Shown: piece after piece, positions 1-31,399 of the stretch
How positions within the stretch are numbered: position 1 is the stretch's first letter
How the letters are laid out: every line of letters begins with the position of its first letter
Assembly: GCA_964394685.1 (NCBI GenBank)
Contig: CAYMYO010000002.1
Location: 98,148-162,147, forward strand
Length of the DNA stretch: 64,000 nucleotides
From: an uncultured Gammaproteobacteria bacterium
GTDB taxonomy: Bacteria; Patescibacteriota; Microgenomatia; UBA10105; UBA927
Direction: 5' to 3'
Notes under the pieces: generated by a model
Seen by the model: only the letters and a program-made list of their open reading frames with translations
The model's database searches: none
What the model was told of the DNA's origin: nothing
Program-made: the position numbers and the translations under genes

Positions 1-1215
1 TTCTTCAAACGGTTCCTGGGTCATTCCATCAATTTCTTTGAGAATGACTTCCGGTTTTCCTACCTGCATTTCATATCCTTCACGTCGTAAATTCTCTAAA
101 AGGATTGCTAAATGGAGTTCCCCCCGACCTGCAACAACAAAACCGGTTCCCTGCGGATTAGGAGTGATGGTAATGCCAATATTGGTCTGTTTTTCTTTAA
201 GAAGTCTCGCGTGAATTTGTCGGGCGGTACAGAATTTTCCCTCTCTTCCTGCAAACGGACTGGTGTTAGCTGAAACAAGAATTTTGAGTGTCGGTTCTTC
301 CAGTGTAATAACCGGATATCCGGTCGGATCAGACGGATCTGTTATTGTCTGACCGATTGCAACATCGGTAATACCCGTTACTGCAATAATATCTCCGGTT
401 TGAGCTTCGTCTGTCTCGACGCGTTTAAGCCCAACGCTCGTAAATACCTGTTCTATCCGGTACTGTCCTATTTTTTTGTTTTCTTCTAATAGAAGTATTG
501 ATTGACGGGGTTTAATTGTTCCCTGCAATAATTTTCCGATAGCATACGTGCCTTTATAATCATCAAAATCCAAGGTTGATACCAACATTTTAGTAGGTTT
601 GTTGCTATCAGCTTTAGGAGCTGGTACTATTTTAAGAATTGCTTCAAAAAGAGGTGTTAAATCACCAGGAGCGTTCAAATCTTGCGGATATGGATCCCAC
701 ACTTTACCAGCCCGACCAACGGAATAGAGGACTGGATACGTTAGATCATCATCTTTGGTGGCAAGATGCAAAAATAATTCTTCGATTTCCCGAACAACCT
801 CTTCTACCCGTGCGTCTTTTCGATCTATTTTATTAATGACAACAATAATTTTTAGTTGCTGCTCCAGTGCCTTTGTAAGAACAAACTGTGTTTGCGGAAG
901 TGGGCCTTCGGCTGCATCAACCACAAGCACAGCTCCATCAGCCATATTTATGGTCCGTTCCACTTCTCCAGAGAAATCTGCGTGCCCCGGGGTGTCGATA
1001 ATGTTAATTTTTGTGCTTTTATACATGACAGAAGTGTTTTTAGCGAGTATTGTGATACCTTTTTCCCGCTCCAGAGGATTACTGTCCAAAATGGTGGTTT
1101 GGTTCATTTCAGCTTCATTTTCCCGAAACGTGTGAGTTTGTTTCAGCATGCCATCGACCAGGGTTGTTTTCCCGTGGTCAACGTGAGCGATGATTGCTAT
1201 ATTTCGGATGTCCAT
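1..1215 (-). CDS. typA: Translational GTPase TypA/BipA. The N-terminal ~405 aa are present; the 3' end runs off the window start.
   Basis: Reverse translation from ATG at complement 1213-1215 gives [24 protein letters not shown]...IIDTPGHADFSGEVER...VVINKIDR, the G1-G4 motifs of BipA. This ORF is not in the supplied track because it is edge-truncated. Confidence 0.85.
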   Translation of the reverse strand, partial: MDIRNIAIIAHVDHGKTTLVDGMLKQTHTFRENEAEMNQTTILDSNPLEREKGITILAKNTSVMYKSTKINIIDTPGHADFSGEVERTINMADGAVLVVDAAEGPLPQTQFVLTKALEQQLKIIVVINKIDRKDARVEEVVREIEELFLHLATKDDDLTYPVLYSVGRAGKVWDPYPQDLNAPGDLTPLFEAILKIVPAPKADSNKPTKMLVSTLDFDDYKGTYAIGKLLQGTIKPRQSILLLEENKKIGQYRIEQVFTSVGLKRVETDEAQTGDIIAVTGITDVAIGQTITDPSDPTGYPVITLEEPTLKILVSANTSPFAGREGKFCTARQIHARLLKEKQTNIGITITPNPQGTGFVVAGRGELHLAILLENLRREGYEMQVGKPEVILKEIDGMTQEPFEE

Positions 1216-4519: not shown

Positions 4520-4807
4520 TTGTACTTATACGTTTACCTGCCTATGGATCCAGTACAGTTGACCATCATCATTATTAGCTTCATTTTAACGACCCTTGTT
4601 GTTATTTTATCCATTCAAGTTTGGCATATTTTAGGAGAATTTCGTTTAACAGCACAGAAAGTAAACAAAATGCTTGATGATGGCGGGAAAGTTACTGGGG
4701 TAATTAGCGATTCTGCTACGTCTGTAGCCGGATTTGTGAGCGGGATTAAAACGGGAATGAATGTGTTGTCTCTATTTAAGAAAAAGAAAGAGGAACCTCA
4801 TGAATGA
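4520..4807 (+). CDS. small membrane protein, hypothetical
   Basis: 95 aa with one N-terminal TM helix; it overlaps the next ORF by 8 nt. Confidence 0.35.
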   Translation: MYLYVYLPMDPVQLTIIIISFILTTLVVILSIQVWHILGEFRLTAQKVNKMLDDGGKVTGVISDSATSVAGFVSGIKTGMNVLSLFKKKKEEPHE

Positions 4808-5162
4808 AGAACGACATGATAATCGGTTTTGGTTTGGTTTTTTTATCGGCGGTCTCATTGGAGCAGGCATTATTGTTCTTTTGGGAACAAAAGAGGGGAA
4901 GAAAATTGAACAACTTCTTGAGAAAAAAGGAAAAGATGCACTTGATGATTTGGAAGAGAAAGTGAAAGACTTGAAAGAAAAAGGTGAAATTTTGAAAGAT
5001 GAAGTTGTGGAACAGGTTATTGAAAAAAAAGAAGAACTGACAGAATTAGCATCAGAGAAAGTTGATGAAACACTTTCACACATAGAATCTCTACAGCAAC
5101 AGGGTCTCCATAACACCCAAAAACTCCGCCGCGCCTTCAAGAATCTTCCGAAGAAGAAGTAA
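4800..5162 (+). CDS. YtxH-like membrane-anchored coiled-coil protein
   Basis: The N-terminal TM helix FWFGFFIGGLIGAGIIVLLG is followed by a charged coiled-coil segment rich in K/E. The ATG at 4800 is preceded by a GAGG Shine-Dalgarno. Confidence 0.45.
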   Translation: MNEERHDNRFWFGFFIGGLIGAGIIVLLGTKEGKKIEQLLEKKGKDALDDLEEKVKDLKEKGEILKDEVVEQVIEKKEELTELASEKVDETLSHIESLQQQGLHNTQKLRRAFKNLPKKK

Positions 5163-5174
5163 CGGTATCTCTTC

Positions 5175-5203
5175 TTGCAAAAATATCATCCTCGGTATAT
5201 TGT
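5175..5203 (+). promoter_or_regulatory. candidate sigma70-type promoter (TTGCAA-N17-TATTGT) upstream of the dehydrogenase gene
   Basis: Hexamers read directly at 5175-5180 and 5198-5203, followed by the GAGGAGG Shine-Dalgarno and the ATG at 5233. Confidence 0.3.
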
Positions 5204-5232
5204 ATGTGTAACTAATTGTTGAGGAGGTATTC

Positions 5233-6177
5233 ATGAGGAGCGCTATATTTTTGCAGAAAAAAGTATTTACAGACAGCCAACTTGTTAAATTAACTGCTCT
5301 TGGTGATATATCATTTACATCTACAGACGGAGAAATGACCATCGAAGAATGTAAAGAGCACGCAAAAAATGCAGACATATTAGGATTAGATCCCGATAAC
5401 TTTGGAGGTTTTGAAAAAGCTCGAGCGCGAACAACAGAGATAATGGAAACATGTCCACAGTTAAAAGGGATTGCCCTTGCAACGACGTCCTTCGGATGGG
5501 TAGATTTGGAGTACTGTAAAAAGCGGGGAATTTCTGTATCAAATGTCCCCGGATATTCGAGAGAATCTGTTGCAGAGCACACCATTGCACTTCTTTTGTG
5601 TATGGCAAAACGAGTGTTAATAACAGATCGCAAAACTCAAAAAGGGCAGTATGTGAAAGAAATGGGTTTTGAACTTGCTGGGAAAACACTGGGAATTATC
5701 GGCATTGGAAATATCGGTTCAAGAACGGCAGAAATTGCACAGGGGATTGGGATGAAAGTAATAGCATATAATCATTCTTCAAAAACTGTCCCAGGAGTAG
5801 AGATGAAGTCACTTGACGAAGTGTTGAGTGAATCTGATGCTCTTGCATTTCATACGACGCATACAGATGTAAATAAGGGATTTATTGGGAAAGAGCAAAT
5901 AGCAAAAATGAAACAGGGAGTGATTATCGTAAATACTGCAGATGAAGCCTTTATTGATGAAACCGCAATGGCAGAAGCATTAAAAAGCGGAAAAGTAGAT
6001 ATGTATACCAGCGAAGGAACGTTATTTGAAAATACACCGCTTGCCGGAATGGAGAGGGCAATAGGGCTTAAAGGATTTGGGTACTATACCCGCGAAGCAA
6101 TACGGAATCTCTTTGAAATATTTGCAGACGATCTCGTCGCAATATCTCAAGGGAAACCAATCCATGTCGTTGGTTAA
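5233..6177 (+). CDS. D-isomer-specific 2-hydroxyacid dehydrogenase family, NAD-binding
   Basis: Rossmann motif GKTLGIIGIGNIGSRTAEIAQGIGMKV and the catalytic-domain layout of the D-2-HDH family. Confidence 0.8.
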   Translation: MRSAIFLQKKVFTDSQLVKLTALGDISFTSTDGEMTIEECKEHAKNADILGLDPDNFGGFEKARARTTEIMETCPQLKGIALATTSFGWVDLEYCKKRGISVSNVPGYSRESVAEHTIALLLCMAKRVLITDRKTQKGQYVKEMGFELAGKTLGIIGIGNIGSRTAEIAQGIGMKVIAYNHSSKTVPGVEMKSLDEVLSESDALAFHTTHTDVNKGFIGKEQIAKMKQGVIIVNTADEAFIDETAMAEALKSGKVDMYTSEGTLFENTPLAGMERAIGLKGFGYYTREAIRNLFEIFADDLVAISQGKPIHVVG

Positions 6178-6491
6178 TTGATTTCTTTTTTCATCCACGC
6201 GAGATATTTTTTGGAGACATGAGTGAGAGGGATAGCTAGAATTCCAGGAGTATCGTATGAGTGAATTTTTGATACGGTTTTTTCTATTTCTTCCCATTTT
6301 TCATCAAAGGTTTTTGCAAAAAGTACAATTTCATTGGCGTCTTCGATATGTTTATGCCAGAAATACAAAGAATGAACAGGATTTGTGAGGATATTTACAC
6401 AGGCGACCAATCGTTTTTTGAGAAGCATTCTGCTTATATCTTCCGCTTCTTGTTTATCTTTACAATCAATGAAAACGAGAATTGGGTTCAT
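6174..6491 (-). CDS. cutA: divalent-cation tolerance protein CutA
   Basis: 105 aa with VACVNILTNPVHSLYFW and a ...YDTPGILAIP C-terminus typical of CutA1. Confidence 0.7.
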   Translation of the reverse strand: MNPILVFIDCKDKQEAEDISRMLLKKRLVACVNILTNPVHSLYFWHKHIEDANEIVLFAKTFDEKWEEIEKTVSKIHSYDTPGILAIPLTHVSKKYLAWMKKEIN

Positions 6492-6826
6492 AATATGATT
6501 TTATGTTGTTTTGGGTTAAACTTAGGTGAGGTTACCATAAAAATAGATAGATTTCCATTCCATGCAAACTGTTCGTGATGTTGTATATAAAGTGTGTCGC
6601 CAGAAATGATGGAATGTTTTTCTTTCGGTAATTCTATTTCTCCTGATCCACTAACAACATAAGCAATTTCATCCGAGATTTTATTCATTGCAAATCCCTG
6701 TTCCGGATACCTTCCTTTGATTTCGGCAATAGCTCCATTCATGAGTTTTATATCCATAGGATATTCATGAATGTTTGTAGTTAGAGAAGAATAATTAGTT
6801 GTTTCTGATTTTTTGACAAGTTTCAT
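6488..6826 (-). CDS. cupin domain protein
   Basis: 112 aa; the EIAYVVSGSGEIEL...GDTLYI pattern matches a cupin beta-barrel. It overlaps cutA by 4 nt, consistent with an operon. Confidence 0.5.
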   Translation of the reverse strand: MKLVKKSETTNYSSLTTNIHEYPMDIKLMNGAIAEIKGRYPEQGFAMNKISDEIAYVVSGSGEIELPKEKHSIISGDTLYIQHHEQFAWNGNLSIFMVTSPKFNPKQHKIIL

Positions 6827-9518: not shown

Positions 9519-9572
9519 ATATTATACATGGTATAATCTGATCATGACCAAGTAGTGAAACTTCAGAAGATT

Positions 9573-9845
9573 ATGTTCTTTTATACGTATGTTCTTGAGA
9601 GCAAAATAAAGAAAAAGTTGTATATTGGATATACGGGTGATTTAGTTCGAAGAGTAAAAGAACATAATCTTGGACTGAATCAATCAACGAAACCTTATAA
9701 ACCGTGGAAACTTATTTATTATGAAGCGAGTCTCGATCAAGAAGATGCAAAACGCAGAGAAATGTATCTTAAAACAAGTCAAGGAGGGAGACTTCTCAAG
9801 CGCAGATTGAAAGAATATTTCTTTCAACACCTGCGTTTTGCCTGA
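9573..9845 (+). CDS. GIY-YIG nuclease family protein, a paralog of the 1377..1646 gene
   Basis: MFFYTYVLESKIKKKLYIGYTGDLVRRVKEHN. The track ORF starts at a GTG at 9555, but the ATG at 9573 fits the family N-terminus. Confidence 0.65.
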   Translation: MFFYTYVLESKIKKKLYIGYTGDLVRRVKEHNLGLNQSTKPYKPWKLIYYEASLDQEDAKRREMYLKTSQGGRLLKRRLKEYFFQHLRFA

Positions 9846-28652: not shown

Positions 28653-29255
28653 ATGTTGCCAATGAAGGTTCGAAACCATTTTAAAAAAGTTGACCCAATT
28701 TTATTTTCTTTAATCAAGAAACATGATGATATATCAATACAGCATTCGAATAACTATTTTTTGAGTTTATGTCGTGAGATCATGACACAACAACTGGCGA
28801 GCGGAGCGGCACGTGCAATTTTCGGGAGATTTGAGAAATTGTTTGAAAAAAGAGAAGTGGCACCGGAAATGGTTTTATCTCTTTCCGATCAAACAATTCG
28901 CGATACCGGAGCTTCATGGGCAAAGGTCAAATACATAAAAAGTCTTGCACAATGTGTCGCTTCGAAAACAATTGATTTGGACGGTATTGAGAAATTAAAT
29001 AACAAAGAAGTGATACAAGAGTTAATAAAAGTGAAAGGAATTGGTCCGTGGACAGCGGAAATGTTTTGTATGTTTTCACTCGGCCGTGAAGATGTATTTT
29101 CGTATGGAGATTTAGGTCTTCGTCACGCAATACAAAAAGCATATGGATTCAAAAAAGAACCAACAATAAAACAAATGGAGAAAATCACTTCAAAATGGTC
29201 ACCATATCGTACCTACGGAGCGCTTCTTCTTTGGAATAGTATTGATACAGTATAA
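28653..29255 (+). CDS. HhH-GPD DNA glycosylase, AlkA-like (3-methyladenine DNA glycosylase II)
   Basis: Helix-hairpin-helix VKGIGPWTAEMFCMF plus the catalytic Asp region SYGDLGL. Confidence 0.75.
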   Translation: MLPMKVRNHFKKVDPILFSLIKKHDDISIQHSNNYFLSLCREIMTQQLASGAARAIFGRFEKLFEKREVAPEMVLSLSDQTIRDTGASWAKVKYIKSLAQCVASKTIDLDGIEKLNNKEVIQELIKVKGIGPWTAEMFCMFSLGREDVFSYGDLGLRHAIQKAYGFKKEPTIKQMEKITSKWSPYRTYGALLLWNSIDTV

Positions 29256-30090
29256 TGAAATTATGAAAGATAAATATTCTGCTATTTGGTTATCGCATTC
29301 ATCAATTACTGACTATCTCAAATGTCCGCGCGCGTATTTTTTGAAAAACATGTATCGGGATCCGAAAAATAATCATAAGATTGCCATCATGCAACCGGCT
29401 CTTGCTCTTGGACAAACCGTGCACAGTGTTTTAGAATCACTTTCAACGCTTCCTGTGGAAGATCGTTTAATAGAATCGCTTGTAACGAAATTTGAAAAAA
29501 CGTGGGAAGAAATATCCGGGAAAAAAGGCGGATTTACAACAAGTGAAGAGGAAGAAAAATATAAAAAACGGGGGATAGAAATGATGGAACGGATTATGAA
29601 AAATCCCGGACCAATTTTGAAAAAAGCAATAAAAATCCGCCAAGAATTGCCGTATTTTTGGCTATCGGAAGAACAGAATATAATTCTCTGCGGCAAACTT
29701 GATTGGCTGGAGTATCTTGAGGATGTTGACAGTATTCGGATTATTGATTTCAAAACAGGAAAATTTGATGAAGATCCGGATTCCTTACAACTTCCTATTT
29801 ACATACTTCTTGCAACCAACTGTCAGACAAAAAAAGTATATGGTGCTCAATACTGGTATCTCAATCGTGATATTGCACCCGTTGACGTAGTTCTTCCCAC
29901 AGTAGAAGATGCGACAAAACGGCTTCTTGATATTGCCCGAACTATTTCTCTTGCACGAAAACTTGAACGGTTTGTGTGTACTCGGAAAGACGGATGTCCT
30001 GCATGTACACCCTATGAAATGGTGTTAACAGGAAAAGCAGAATTTATCGGCGTAGGAGTATATAATCAGGATACGTATATATTAAAATAA
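29242..30090 (+). CDS. Cas4-like PD-(D/E)XK nuclease with a 4-Cys cluster (DUF83/RecB-like); standalone, with no CRISPR array or cas genes in the window
   Basis: An N-terminal Cys in DYLKCPRAYF, the core IIDFKTGK, and the C-terminal CTRKDGCPACTPY, which is the Cas4/AddB-type Fe-S arrangement. Confidence 0.65.
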   Translation: MIQYNEIMKDKYSAIWLSHSSITDYLKCPRAYFLKNMYRDPKNNHKIAIMQPALALGQTVHSVLESLSTLPVEDRLIESLVTKFEKTWEEISGKKGGFTTSEEEEKYKKRGIEMMERIMKNPGPILKKAIKIRQELPYFWLSEEQNIILCGKLDWLEYLEDVDSIRIIDFKTGKFDEDPDSLQLPIYILLATNCQTKKVYGAQYWYLNRDIAPVDVVLPTVEDATKRLLDIARTISLARKLERFVCTRKDGCPACTPYEMVLTGKAEFIGVGVYNQDTYILK

Positions 30091-30102
30091 AGGAGGATCA
30101 CC

Positions 30103-30603
30103 ATGTCAACAAATACACTGTCAGTTACAATAAAAAAAATTATTACACTGGAAACAGCGATTTTTACGTTAGCATTTTGTGTGCCGCTTCTGTTTAATGG
30201 TTCACAGATTGTTACTGGAAGTATAATAAATACTCTTTTGTTTATTTCAGCAGCTAAACTGTCAAAGCGGGCGTTGCCATTCATCGCGATCATTCCAAGT
30301 TTGGGCGCTGTATCAAACGGTATTCTTTTTGGCCCATTTACTATATATCTCGTTTACTTTCTGCCATTTATTTGGATGGGAAATTATCTTTTGATGTGGA
30401 TAGCAAAATCCAGCAATTTTTTGATTGCCGCACTTGCGAAAAGTACATTTTTGTTTTTGATTGCTTATGTTTTTGTATCTTTCCATATTGTTCCAAAAAT
30501 ATTTTTAACTGCGATGGGAGTTTTACAGCTTGTTACTGCCATTGTTGGAGGAATAGCTGCCATCGGGATATCAAAATATATTTTAAAACCAGCTCATGAA
30601 TGA
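30103..30603 (+). CDS. polytopic membrane protein (about 5 TM), function unknown; co-operonic with the next gene
   Basis: 166 aa, with a strong Shine-Dalgarno AAAGGAGG and a stop overlapping the next start (ATGAATGA). Confidence 0.4.
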   Translation: MSTNTLSVTIKKIITLETAIFTLAFCVPLLFNGSQIVTGSIINTLLFISAAKLSKRALPFIAIIPSLGAVSNGILFGPFTIYLVYFLPFIWMGNYLLMWIAKSSNFLIAALAKSTFLFLIAYVFVSFHIVPKIFLTAMGVLQLVTAIVGGIAAIGISKYILKPAHE

Positions 30604-31399
30604 AGTAGAACAACTCGTTCAACTAATAAAAGATAAAAAGCATCTTGTTGCGATGCTTGCTCCGTCGTTTCCAATTGTTTTTGATTATCCGGATATTGTA
30701 AAACGTTTGAAACAAATAGGATTTCAGGAAGTTTTGGAGGTATCGGTGGGAGCTGAAATTACAAACGAACAGATGCTTGCGGAGTTAAATAAAGATAAAA
30801 AGAAACGATTTATTACCAGTCCCTGTGCAAGTGCTGTTCGGCTTATTCGGAAAAAATATCCGCAGCTTGAAAAATATCTTGCGTACAACGTTGATTCGCC
30901 AATGGTTGCTACCGCAAAGATTGCCCATCATAAGTGGCCGGATGCAAAGGTTGTGTTTATCGGACCCTGTATAGTGAAACGGCTTGAGGCATCAGAAGAT
31001 CATCCGGATTTAGATATTTTAGTTTTGACGTATAAGGAGCTCAATGAAGTATTGAAGGTTATTCAACCAGATGAAGCCATACCAGTTGAGAAATTATTTG
31101 ATTTAGAAAATTCCAGCACTCGGTTGTATCCAATATCCGGAGGATTAGCAGCCACAAGCTGTTCGTCACATTTACTTTCAAGTGATGAACTACAGGTGAT
31201 ATCAGGATGGAAAAACTGTGCAGAGGCGCTGGATAATTTTGAGAAAAACACCTCTGTTCGGCTTCTTGATATTCTCTTTTGCGATGGAGGATGTATTAAT
31301 GGCCCGGGGATTGAAAGCACGTTATCACTTGATGAGCGAAGAAATAAATTACTCGGATATATCGACCAGAGAAAAGCAGAATCTTCAGTTTCTTCGTGA
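30596..31399 (+). CDS. [FeFe]-hydrogenase H-domain-like protein, truncated, with a degenerate first cluster motif
   Basis: VAMLAPSFPIVFDYPD...GFQEVLEVSVGAEI matches the start of the H-domain. Motif L1 is degenerate (FITSPCASAV versus consensus TSCCPxW). Motif L2 is present as GPCIVKRLE (consensus PCxxKxxE). Motif L3 is present as FCDGGCINGPG (consensus CxGGCxxG). The protein is 267 aa with no ferredoxin-like N-terminus. Confidence 0.6.
   Translation: MNEVEQLVQLIKDKKHLVAMLAPSFPIVFDYPDIVKRLKQIGFQEVLEVSVGAEITNEQMLAELNKDKKKRFITSPCASAVRLIRKKYPQLEKYLAYNVDSPMVATAKIAHHKWPDAKVVFIGPCIVKRLEASEDHPDLDILVLTYKELNEVLKVIQPDEAIPVEKLFDLENSSTRLYPISGGLAATSCSSHLLSSDELQVISGWKNCAEALDNFEKNTSVRLLDILFCDGGCINGPGIESTLSLDERRNKLLGYIDQRKAESSVSS

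Follow-up and report, generated by a model that had tools for sequence, protein, structure and literature searches.

Which function could tie a short protein resembling [FeFe] hydrogenases to the small membrane protein encoded immediately before it? The question arises from two adjacent genes in a window of 64 kb of Patescibacteria DNA, which is the whole stretch that we analyzed and whose numbering is used throughout. The gene order of the window is bacterial (rpoB/C, S12-S7-EF-G-EF-Tu-S10), and the closest homologues of the hydrogenase-like protein (267 aa) are named Microgenomates, Roizmanbacteria, and similar. The first gene of the pair encodes an integral membrane protein of 166 aa (hereafter, the TM protein) and is preceded by a PD-(D/E)XK gene ending at position 30090. 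The start codon of the second gene, referred to here as the H-domain gene, lies within the 3' end of the TM gene, an arrangement that implies translational coupling; from this coupling, we infer that the 267-aa protein may associate with the membrane. The initial annotation had proposed both open reading frames, their overlap at the TM stop codon, a co-operonic arrangement, and a strong Shine-Dalgarno sequence in front of the TM gene, all of which we recovered (Table 1).

TABLE 1 Features of the gene pair and of the 267-aa protein (window numbering; A1, family alignment of 27 diverse homologues)
Feature	Residues	Position	Strand	Basis or remark
Shine-Dalgarno AAGGAGG		30090..30096	+	Read from sequence; 6 nt 5' of TM gene start codon
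TM gene, 166-aa integral membrane protein		30103..30603	+	Six predicted helices; predicted ECF S-component-like fold
Overlap of TM gene and H-domain gene, ATGAATGA, 8 nt		30596..30603	+	Read from sequence
H-domain gene, 267-aa [FeFe]-hydrogenase-family protein, H-domain-only, ultraminimal, group-E-like		30596..31399	+	PF02906, AF2 model, Foldseek, family alignment
VAMLAPSFP	18-26		+	
A22-P23-S24-F25-P26	22-26	30659..30673	+	A-P-S invariant in family (A1)
L1 equivalent, T74-S75-P76-C77	74-77	30815..30826	+	Profile alignments to CpI and TmHydA
L2 equivalent, GPCIVKRLE (G123-P124-C125-I-V-K128-R-L-E131)	123-131	30962..30988	+	A1 and CpI alignment
L3 equivalent, FCDGGCINGPG (F228-C229-D-G-G-C233-I-N-G-P-G)	228-238	31277..31309	+	A1 and CpI alignment

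The H-domain-only protein and its putative H-cluster site

The 267-aa protein matched the Pfam profile PF02906 (Fe_hyd_lg_C) over its entire length (positions 1 to 245 of 245), with an E value of 7.5e-36 and a score of 124.4 bits (cutoff, 22.1). This was the sole domain returned by the Pfam search, in which neither Fer4 domains nor the C-terminal Fe_hyd_SSU region (PF02256) was found, in agreement with the first description of an H-domain-only relative of HydA devoid of F-cluster domains. The family profile matched HydA chains of the PDB with E values down to 7e-18, and the AF2 model (pLDDT, 88.1) superposed in Foldseek on CbA5H, CpI, and the HydA of HydABC (TMq of 0.72 to 0.81, E values down to 3e-14). 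The profile search and the structural superposition on HydA were thus both positive, and the 267-aa protein is almost certainly a genuine member of the H-domain family. Among the NCBIfam models, the best match was TIGR04105 (group B1; E value, 1.8e-42), with 145.6 bits (cutoff, 450) over model positions 211 to 458 only; this score and the lack of N-terminal ferredoxin domains set the protein apart from group B1. TIGR02512 scored 58.6 bits (cutoff, 406).

The initial annotation had called the protein truncated. We found instead a conserved minimal family of H-domain-only proteins of ~260 aa, which comprises more than 1,250 database clusters in Patescibacteria. So many homologous single-domain clusters imply purifying selection, and a pseudogene or a truncation was rejected given the size and conservation of the family and its invariant length. 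A second minimal subfamily from Patescibacteria, of ~285 aa (Parcubacteria type; 568 database clusters), was the sole return of a homologue search that was seeded with a divergent protein (L014) and aimed at archaeal members.

We then examined the residues of the active site. The four Cys ligands of the H-cluster (C300, C355, C499, and the bridging C503 in CpI) correspond to C77, C125, C229, and C233, and they are invariant in the family alignment (n = 27), as are the [2Fe] pocket residues K128 and E131 (CpI K358 and E361) and A22-P23-S24. We take this triplet to be A230-P231-S232 of CpI by matching of the motif, since the profile alignments to CpI begin only at profile position 32. The motifs VAMLAPSFP, TSPC, GPCIVKRLE, and FCDGGCINGPG lay where they had first been placed, L2 and L3 being kept, and L1 does contain one Cys instead of two: C77 is present, and P76 occupies the position of the first Cys. 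The word degenerate does not suit this L1, as the Pro is invariant across the family. In the profile alignments, P76 falls on CpI C299, a proton relay, and C77 on C300, a ligand of [4Fe-4S]H, so that the lost Cys is not a ligand of the H-cluster. The order of the ligands is that of HydA, as first reported, but the spacings of 47 and 123 aa given at that time have to be corrected to 48 (C77-C125) and 104 (C125-C229), compared to 55 and 144 in CpI, which corresponds to the same order with shorter loops.

Other positions around the active site differ from those of CpI. G123 stands in place of M353, and L227, which directly precedes the L3 span, stands in place of M497. All five residues of the group A proton path are gone: C299, S319, E282, and R286 are replaced by P76, A95, Q59, and E63, respectively, and E279 belongs to a 4-residue segment that is absent. 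The protein therefore differs from prototypical group A enzymes, as it has neither TSCCPxW, the proton path, M353, M497, nor the Fe_hyd_SSU region. With Pro for C299, Gly for M353, Leu for M497, and the five proton-path residues missing, the protein could have very low activity or none. C299 is likewise missing from groups C and D, yet they are H-cluster enzymes (PMC10407848).

Group E comprises the ultraminimal [FeFe] hydrogenases, presented in 2024 as an innovation of DPANN archaea, with Fm of "Ca. Forterrea multitransposorum" as an example (Greening et al., Cell 2024; PMC11216029). They consist of the H-domain only (~286 aa on average), with a single [4Fe-4S] site and no accessory clusters, and, as published, they form an archaeal clade that is monophyletic, with sensory group C as its sister (PMC11216029). 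In a bootstrapped neighbor-joining tree, which is a distance method only, all minimal proteins formed one clade (93% bootstrap) neighbored by multidomain sensory hydrogenases. This clade included an archaeal 299-aa protein, which joined the ~285-aa Parcubacteria type (96%). The archaeal protein is encoded on a metagenome contig (L095; TYW1 confirmed, RadA-like ORF recognized by eye) that carries homologues of both window genes, with 36% and 39% identity (36% for the hydrogenase), and it probably represents the published DPANN group E. Through this one archaeal metagenome protein and the distance tree, the 267-aa protein appears to fit the ultraminimal hydrogenases of group E. Once matured artificially, Fm of group E takes up [2Fe]adt and produces H2 (PMC11216029), and with such a presumed relative, the non-catalytic character first suggested for the 267-aa protein is not indicated. 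We consider it rather probable that an H-cluster is housed in this putative hydrogenase and supports H2 turnover.

A membrane protein encoded beside [FeFe] hydrogenases

We looked into the genomic context of both genes. Among 78 genome loci containing the TM gene, a minimal H-domain gene was located directly downstream in 50, a canonical HydA was found within 6 kb in 14 and HydB in 2 more, and only 6 informative loci had no hydrogenase gene. Seen from the hydrogenase side, the TM gene was upstream in 11/12 informative close metagenome loci. Start and stop codons overlapped in 42/56 of the TM-then-H pairs of related loci. The combination of genes, which the initial annotation had not recognized, recurs in about 60 independent loci with 40 to 55% protein identity and differing neighbors, and a TM neighbor of this kind had already been noted under the name hyd6TM (PMC11216029). 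In 11 archaeal loci (Woese-, Nano-, Micr-, and Altiarchaeia), TM homologues were found within 4 kb of HydA, HydB, and HydC, the TM gene of the DPANN loci being divergently transcribed from hydABC. The family thus accompanies minimal hydrogenases, canonical HydA(B/C), and, once, a sensory hydrogenase, in CPR bacteria and DPANN archaea. Within the ~285-aa Parcubacteria subfamily, 2/4 of the loci examined had no TM gene within 4 kb, so the partner is not required by all minimal enzymes.

Neighbor clustering yielded no third conserved gene (ferredoxin, maturase, or ECF module); the clusters consisted of antisense shadow ORFs and of housekeeping genes (S2, EF-Ts, RF, L31, enolase, and PD-(D/E)XK nuclease). 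HydE/F/G-like ORFs were found neither in the flanks of ~93 TM-bearing CPR/DPANN loci nor in the 64-kb window, whereas in non-CPR loci, HydE, HydG, or HydF lay beside sensory hydrogenases. Most archaea with hydrogenases are without HydEFG, and an alternative maturation route has been postulated (PMC11216029).

The TM protein is predicted to have six helices, one more than the initial annotation had counted. It had no sequence match in Pfam, NCBIfam, or a PDB profile search, even at E values of 1 to 10, and matched no known S-component family. Its predicted structure displays the six-helix arrangement of S-components, and an S-component-like fold is likely on the basis of this model. Conserved motifs of the TM family are PQxLxGTxVN, PSxG, FGPxT, YFLPFIWxGN, K113, and VPKxFLTAMGxxQLxTAxxGG. 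Strong conservation was observed for Q35, N43, T80, W91, N94, M138, and Q142, which would occupy the outer half of each of helices 2, 4, and 6 according to the topology given by the positive-inside rule. Helix 1 is not conserved and has no conserved AxxxA, and the family contains no conserved His or Cys. No ORF with LSGGQ (ABC signature) was present in the 64-kb window, and the flanks held no conserved gene for an ECF module. The genes for group II ECF modules usually lie at other sites, and some S-components (BioY and BtuM) are solitary and transport without an ECF module (PMC11109136).

From its gene context, not its sequence, the 166-aa protein is probably of the hyd6TM type, hyd6TM being an uncharacterized TM protein of 4 to 6 helices that adjoins archaeal [FeFe] hydrogenases (PMC11216029). 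In the literature that we searched, hyd6TM was found only in that paper, and we came across no earlier statement of an S-component-like fold for it and no paper combining an FeFe hydrogenase with an S-component. The searches on Patescibacteria/CPR together with [FeFe] hydrogenases, group E, or HydE/G returned nothing specific.

Proposed function of the gene pair

We propose that the two genes form a module, widespread in Patescibacteria (CPR), in which an ultraminimal hydrogenase bearing an H-cluster is paired with an S-component-like partner dedicated to it, a reading that we favor by a small measure. The 267-aa protein would be cytoplasmic and belong to a clade sister to the sensory group C/D hydrogenases, and it retains all that is needed to hold the H-cluster, namely, the four Cys ligands, K358, E361, and A-P-S. 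It would most likely carry this cluster and allow fermentative reducing equivalents (reduced ferredoxin) to leave as H2, at rates expected to be modest, with protons passing straight to a solvent-exposed site. The TM protein, with the fold of a substrate-capture subunit, would be dedicated to the hydrogenase, capture a small molecule at the outer side of the membrane, and hand it over to the enzyme. Most plausibly, the molecule delivered would be needed for assembly of the [2Fe] part of the H-cluster, the organisms in question apparently having no HydE/F/G.

That the TM partner acts in uptake or maturation, and not as a mere anchor, is put forward tentatively. A narrower version, which we regard as quite speculative and on the whole unlikely, makes it a putative dedicated importer, or capture-and-handover device, for an organometallic cofactor or a late precursor. 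Scavenged from a host or from neighboring cells, the cargo would be either the [2Fe] subcluster or a synthon of the HydG/HydE type. If the importer reading is true, maturase-free CPR bacteria and DPANN archaea would activate apo-[FeFe] hydrogenases of any architecture in this way, and the TM protein would provide the "alternative maturation pathway" of Cell 2024 and be the first transporter known to serve an organometallic cofactor of an enzyme. Two other cargoes were rejected: riboflavin for the FMN of HydB, since the minimal enzymes have no flavin subunit, and metals taken up in the manner of CbiM/NikM, since the TM protein has no conserved N terminus, His, or Cys.

The TM partner might instead transport nothing and be only a membrane anchor or docking subunit, for the minimal hydrogenase here and for HydABC elsewhere. 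We judge this rather unlikely, as the conserved polar and aromatic residues sit in the outer halves of the helices, where S-components bind their substrate, and not on a cytoplasmic docking face. One would also not expect an anchor to be shared by hydrogenases of three different architectures, and the divergent transcription of the TM gene from hydABC in DPANN loci argues against it as well.

It is improbable, in our view, that the 267-aa protein is no hydrogenase in vivo and functions as a [4Fe-4S]-only redox protein (Nar1-like) or as an H2/redox sensor that works with an S-component-like receptor or transporter. Sensory hydrogenases with HisKA/HATPase, PAS, or sigma-54 activator domains are the multidomain proteins closest to it, but the 267-aa protein itself has no output domain. 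The absence of C299 and the Gly in place of M353 are features of sensors (PMC10407848), while the invariant K358, E361, and A-P-S have a role only at the [2Fe] subsite. No genes for maturases were observed in the vicinity, and yet the archaeal group E enzyme is catalytic once matured (PMC11216029). The S-component fold also serves receptors, including 5TMR sensor kinases (PMC11109136), but the TM family likewise partners canonical HydA of the TSCCP type together with HydB and HydC, and these are hydrogenases beyond doubt. Finally, the chance that the adjacency is coincidental or that one ORF is spurious is practically nil, as nothing beyond the missing annotation of the TM protein speaks for it, the synteny counts refute it with gene order and overlap shared by about 60 loci, and both families are under clear purifying selection.

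If the preferred reading of a hydrogenase module holds, the kind of enzyme reported from archaea would be very common in Patescibacteria, with two subfamilies of 1,250 and 568 clusters. The potential for H2 production would extend to much of the bacterial "dark matter," which would also offer many small scaffolds for biotechnology. The sole gene consistently tied to these hydrogenases encodes a membrane protein with a predicted micronutrient-capture fold, and this tie spans minimal and canonical architectures, one sensory case, and both domains of life. The TM gene would thus be a concrete, cloneable candidate for H-cluster building without HydEFG.

Comparison with known systems

The H-domains of sensory groups C/D (TmHydS and TamHydS) are the nearest relatives of the 267-aa protein, with 30 to 38% identity. 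Like the 267-aa protein, they have lost C299, have Gly in place of M353 (GPC motif), and are devoid of the group A proton path. Unlike it, they possess N-terminal Fer4, C-terminal FeS (PF04060), and PAS/kinase/phosphatase/sigma-54 output domains, and the C299 position, always Pro in the 267-aa family, is in most cases occupied by Ala, Asp, Ser, or Thr in the sensory enzymes. HydA1 from Chlamydomonas, a minimal group A enzyme of the M1 type, shares the H-domain-only composition and the fold, but it has TSCCP, M353, M497, the full proton path, and a C-terminal region resembling the small subunit, and it needs HydEFG. HydA1 is also larger, with a precursor of 457 residues (PMC11216029).

Group E enzymes resemble the 267-aa protein in being limited to an H-domain of ~260 to 300 aa with condensed loops and no accessory FeS clusters, in keeping all Cys ligands of the H-cluster, and in having proton-path residues unlike those of group A. 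Their hosts are archaea (DPANN), whereas the 267-aa protein is bacterial (Patescibacteria), and the Microgenomates-type subclade differs from group E by the Pro at the C299 position and by the overlapping TM gene upstream.

Compared to S-components (RibU, HmpT, PanT, ThiT, BioY, BtuM, and CbiM), the TM protein shows only 6 to 21% identity in structural alignments, and its family has no N-terminal metal-binding motif. Both hyd6TM and the window TM family are small multihelix membrane proteins whose genes in DPANN archaea adjoin those of [FeFe] hydrogenases. Beyond what is described for hyd6TM, the window TM family is also tied to minimal H-domain genes in bacteria.

Composition and surroundings of the gene pair

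The window carries a conserved two-gene module that combines an H-domain-only protein of the [FeFe]-hydrogenase family with a hydrogenase-linked membrane protein (hereafter TM protein) of predicted S-component fold. Both open reading frames (ORFs) lie in the interval proposed in the initial annotation, with the start of one overlapping the stop of the other. The upstream glycosylase and nuclease genes also overlap, and 12 nt separate the latter from the TM gene, so that all four genes may belong to a single transcript. A DUF2130 gene follows the H-domain gene after a gap of 133 nt. A PD-(D/E)XK (UvrD_C-fused) gene also precedes the pair in ∼7 related loci, which probably reflects lineage synteny and not a functional link, and no other conserved neighbor of the pair was found among the related loci.

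Features of the gene pair and its upstream region (window positions)
Feature	Position	Strand	Basis
HhH-GPD glycosylase gene	28653-29255		domain match
PD-(D/E)XK nuclease gene	29242-30090		domain match
AAGGAGG ahead of the TM ORF	30090-30096	+	sequence
166-aa hydrophobic protein (TM protein)	30103-30603	+	ORF
Overlap ATGAATGA, H-domain start codon within the end of the TM ORF	30596-30603	+	sequence
267-aa soluble protein (H-domain protein)	30596-31399	+	ORF

The window has a GC content of 39%. Since its gene order is that of a bacterial core (rpoB/rpoC and an S12-S7-EF-G-EF-Tu-S10 cluster) and the closest database homologue of the 267-aa protein (91% identity) is named Microgenomates group bacterium, the host is a Patescibacteria (CPR) bacterium. 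Elsewhere in the window, two small ORFs (1341-1646 and 9555-9845; 101 and 96 aa) have similar N termini (…YIGVTNNLGRRVFEHK… and …YIGYTGDLVRRVKEHN…) and appear to resemble GIY-YIG-type small nuclease domains.

The 267-aa protein and its family

We found that the Pfam domain Fe_hyd_lg_C matches the 267-aa protein across the entire profile (E = 7.5e-36), which upholds its initial reading as an H-domain. The top NCBIfam match, to the group B1 model, covers the C-terminal half only (E = 1.8e-42), with a score well under the membership cutoff. Failure to superpose on HydA had been set beforehand as a refutation, and the reading withstood this test: an AlphaFold2 model built from 27 homologues (pLDDT 88.1) gave TM-scores of 0.72 to 0.81 against solved HydA structures.

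Residues were mapped by profile alignments with the reference hydrogenases CpI and TmHydA. The [4Fe-4S]H ligands (C77, C125, and C229, equivalent to CpI C300, C355, and C499), the bridging cysteine (C233, CpI C503), the [2Fe]-pocket residues K128 and E131 (CpI K358 and E361) and A22-P23-S24 (CpI A230-P231-S232, a motif-based assignment; the CpI alignments begin at profile position 32), and the conserved S101-P102 (CpI S323-P324) are all retained and invariant in the family alignment. The proton relay is lost, with P76 at the position of CpI C299, as is the proton path, with A95, Q59, and E63 at those of S319, E282, and R286. CpI E279 has no counterpart and falls in a four-residue stretch absent from the minimal (H-domain-only) family, and G123 and L227 replace M353 and M497. 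The motif order is that of HydA, as first noted, but the loops are condensed: the ligands are spaced by 48 and 104 residues, versus 55 and 144 in CpI. The figure of 123 given at first was wrong. The 267-aa protein is thus a genuine, complete H-domain. A fifth cysteine, C208 (GWKNC), is invariant across the Microgenomates-type subfamily, but neither the Parcubacteria types nor the archaeal protein described below has it.

A database search returned 1,250 clusters of homologues; the 120 matches listed are all single-domain proteins of about 242 to 302 aa and, where named, come from Patescibacteria, Microgenomates, and Roizman-, Beckwith-, Levy-, and Pacebacteria. The 267-aa protein is therefore a member of a family and not a truncation, as had been thought. 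Nor is its first motif degenerate, since Pro precedes the first ligand Cys in every minimal member inspected (variants ITSPC, ITNPC, ITCPC, and IASPC). A search seeded with a divergent member revealed a second Patescibacteria subfamily, of ∼285 aa and hundreds of clusters.

A close minimal H-domain gene (52% identity; L089, 1335-2285) lies on a contig of 61% GC, and the 1.3 kb preceding it contain no TM gene; this GC content, atypical of Patescibacteria, could reflect transfer or another host lineage. In L080, a single ORF (5997-6806) matches the TM family over its N-terminal ∼100 residues and, in its C-terminal part, the H-domain from about residue 85 on. The two genes appear to have undergone an in-frame fusion or deletion here, which could be an assembly artifact or a decayed locus. 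Many "MAG TPA_asm" records with this pair of CPR/DPANN type (L003 to L080) bear the titles uncultured Gammaproteobacteria, Pseudomonadales, Saccharibacteria, or Methanosarcinales; these titles look like unreliable placeholders and were excluded as a basis for taxonomy.

Linkage of the TM family to hydrogenases

We scanned one genome per species with a TM profile and obtained 78 loci. A minimal H-domain gene lay directly downstream on the same strand in 50 of them, and a canonical long HydA (TSCCP/TTCCP, MPC, with Fer2/Fer4 and SSU regions) was located within 6 kb in 14. HydB adjoined the TM gene on short contigs in two cases, and one locus contained an odd fused ORF; five contigs stopped at the TM gene and were uninformative, and six loci had flanks without a hydrogenase gene. 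The linkage of the TM family is specific to [FeFe] hydrogenases. Three of the canonical-HydA loci are Patescibacteria operons of the order TM-HydB-HydA, and the other 11 are from DPANN (Woese-, Nano-, Micr-, and Altiarchaeia by record title), with HydA, HydB, and HydC. In the Patescibacteria loci L012, L013, and L028, an operon runs from the TM gene through HydB (Complex1_51K) to a canonical 531-aa HydA (TSCCPGW, Fer2_4 + Fer4 + SSU) in place of the minimal enzyme (e.g., L013, 5914-8997, flanked by the folate C1 genes SHMT, FTHFS, and FolD).

Viewed from the hydrogenase side, the TM gene was upstream in 11 of the 12 informative close metagenome loci, and the H-domain start overlapped the TM gene end in 42/56 pairs. 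In the archaeal locus L095, a TM gene (39% identity) lies downstream of the H-domain gene. The tie to the TM gene is looser in the ∼285-aa Parcubacteria subfamily: among four loci examined, the TM gene was upstream in L014, a divergent TM gene was downstream in L163, and L161 and L162 had none within 4 kb, which counts against an obligatory partner role. A distant TM homologue (E = 1.5e-17; L157, 6798-7340, minus strand) directly follows a kinase-type sensory hydrogenase (4806-6794, plus strand; Fer4 + H-domain + FeS + HisKA/HATPase); since this contig (256 kb, 44% GC) seems to resemble neither CPR nor DPANN, the TM family may extend past small-genome lineages.

We also screened all retrieved loci, by simple motifs, for radical-SAM ORFs of the HydE/G kind and for GTPases resembling HydF. 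The 64-kb window contains one radical-SAM gene, MtaB/MiaB-like, and neither a HydF-like GTPase nor an ORF with the ABC signature LSGGQ. Across ∼93 TM-bearing CPR/DPANN loci, no HydE/F/G was found, the screens flagging only a LipS2 and a TYW1, whereas the non-CPR loci L107, L112, L128, and L143 have HydE/HydG or HydF (NCBIfam-confirmed) beside sensory hydrogenases. Clustering with maturase genes is thus absent from all TM-bearing CPR/DPANN loci, a locus-level contrast that is confounded by taxonomy. On the latter four metagenome contigs, canonical HydA often adjoins the sensory hydrogenase genes too. In archaea, the full HydEFG set was reported in only 5/130 hydrogenase-bearing genomes, and an alternative pathway was postulated (PMC11216029).

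The membrane partner and relation to known systems

The TM protein has no sequence match in Pfam, NCBIfam, or PDB. At 50% identity, its family falls into 868 clusters, of which almost all are stand-alone proteins of 150 to 200 aa, and the positive-inside rule suggests an N-in/C-in topology. The invariant residues (Q35, G39, N43, F76-G77, T80, P88-F-I-W91, N94, P131, M138, and Q142) would sit in outer loops and in the outer half of each of helices 2, 4, and 6, the region where S-components bind their substrate. The helix-1 AxxxA motif is not conserved in the family. A CbiM/NikM-type metal site is disfavored, as there is no conserved N terminus, His, or Cys.

We propose, with low to moderate confidence, that the TM partner serves to capture a small molecule on behalf of the hydrogenase. 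Because it accompanies three architectures that share the H-cluster and not their electron-transfer partners, we tentatively favor acquisition of a cofactor or precursor. Some S-components, among them BioY and BtuM, are solitary and need no ECF module for transport (PMC11109136). The same distribution speaks against a plain membrane anchor, which we regard as doubtful. A receptor role is also less favored. The S-component fold occurs in 5TMR sensor kinases as well (PMC11109136). Our literature search found no paper linking [FeFe] hydrogenases to S-components. The pairing itself had been glimpsed before: the "hyd6TM" named only in figure legends of PMC11216029 very probably corresponds to the TM family, and this, together with the recurrence of the pair, revises the initial view of an unrecognized combination. 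Our analysis adds how widely the family is spread in Patescibacteria, the strict two-gene coupling, and the predicted S-component-like fold of the partner. From this fold follows a hypothesis, open to testing, of how the H-cluster could be assembled without maturases.

A metagenome scan recovered remoter relatives of the 267-aa protein (30 to 38% identity, 560 to 870 aa), whose N-terminal Fer4, H-domain, PF04060 FeS domain, and additional domains (PAS, HisKA/HATPase, or sigma-54 activator) identify them as group C/D sensory hydrogenases. Like the family of the window, they carry GPC (M353 to Gly) and lack C299, where they have A, D, P, S, or T; in groups C and D, C299 is not conserved and is mostly Ala, and the H-cluster is still carried (PMC10407848). 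L095, archaeal by a RadA-like ORF (by eye, from translation) and a TYW1 gene (NCBIfam-confirmed), encodes a 299-aa H-domain-only protein with 36% identity to that of the window. In a neighbor-joining tree (78 H-domains, 263 columns, 300 bootstraps), all minimal proteins formed one clade (93%) neighbored by sensory hydrogenases; within it, the L095 protein joined the ∼285-aa Parcubacteria type (96%) and the Microgenomates type joined the ∼267-aa Parcubacteria type (99.7%).

Group E comprises ultraminimal enzymes (mean, 286 aa) of DPANN archaea, sister to sensory group C (PMC11216029). The minimal clade, compared by description, fits it in size and restriction to the H-domain and probably also in its placement in the neighbor-joining tree, and the window's protein likely belongs to this group; Patescibacteria are not mentioned in PMC11216029. 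Fm, an enzyme of group E, holds a single [4Fe-4S] cluster, accepts synthetic [2Fe]adt, and produces H2 (PMC11216029), so that the early label "possibly non-catalytic" needs revision. By analogy, we infer with moderate confidence that the 267-aa enzyme would bind an H-cluster and evolve H2 as a fermentative electron sink, protons presumably reaching the solvent-exposed site directly because there is no group-A proton path. The 267-aa enzyme is probably a bacterial counterpart, or sister, of this recently described archaeal kind.
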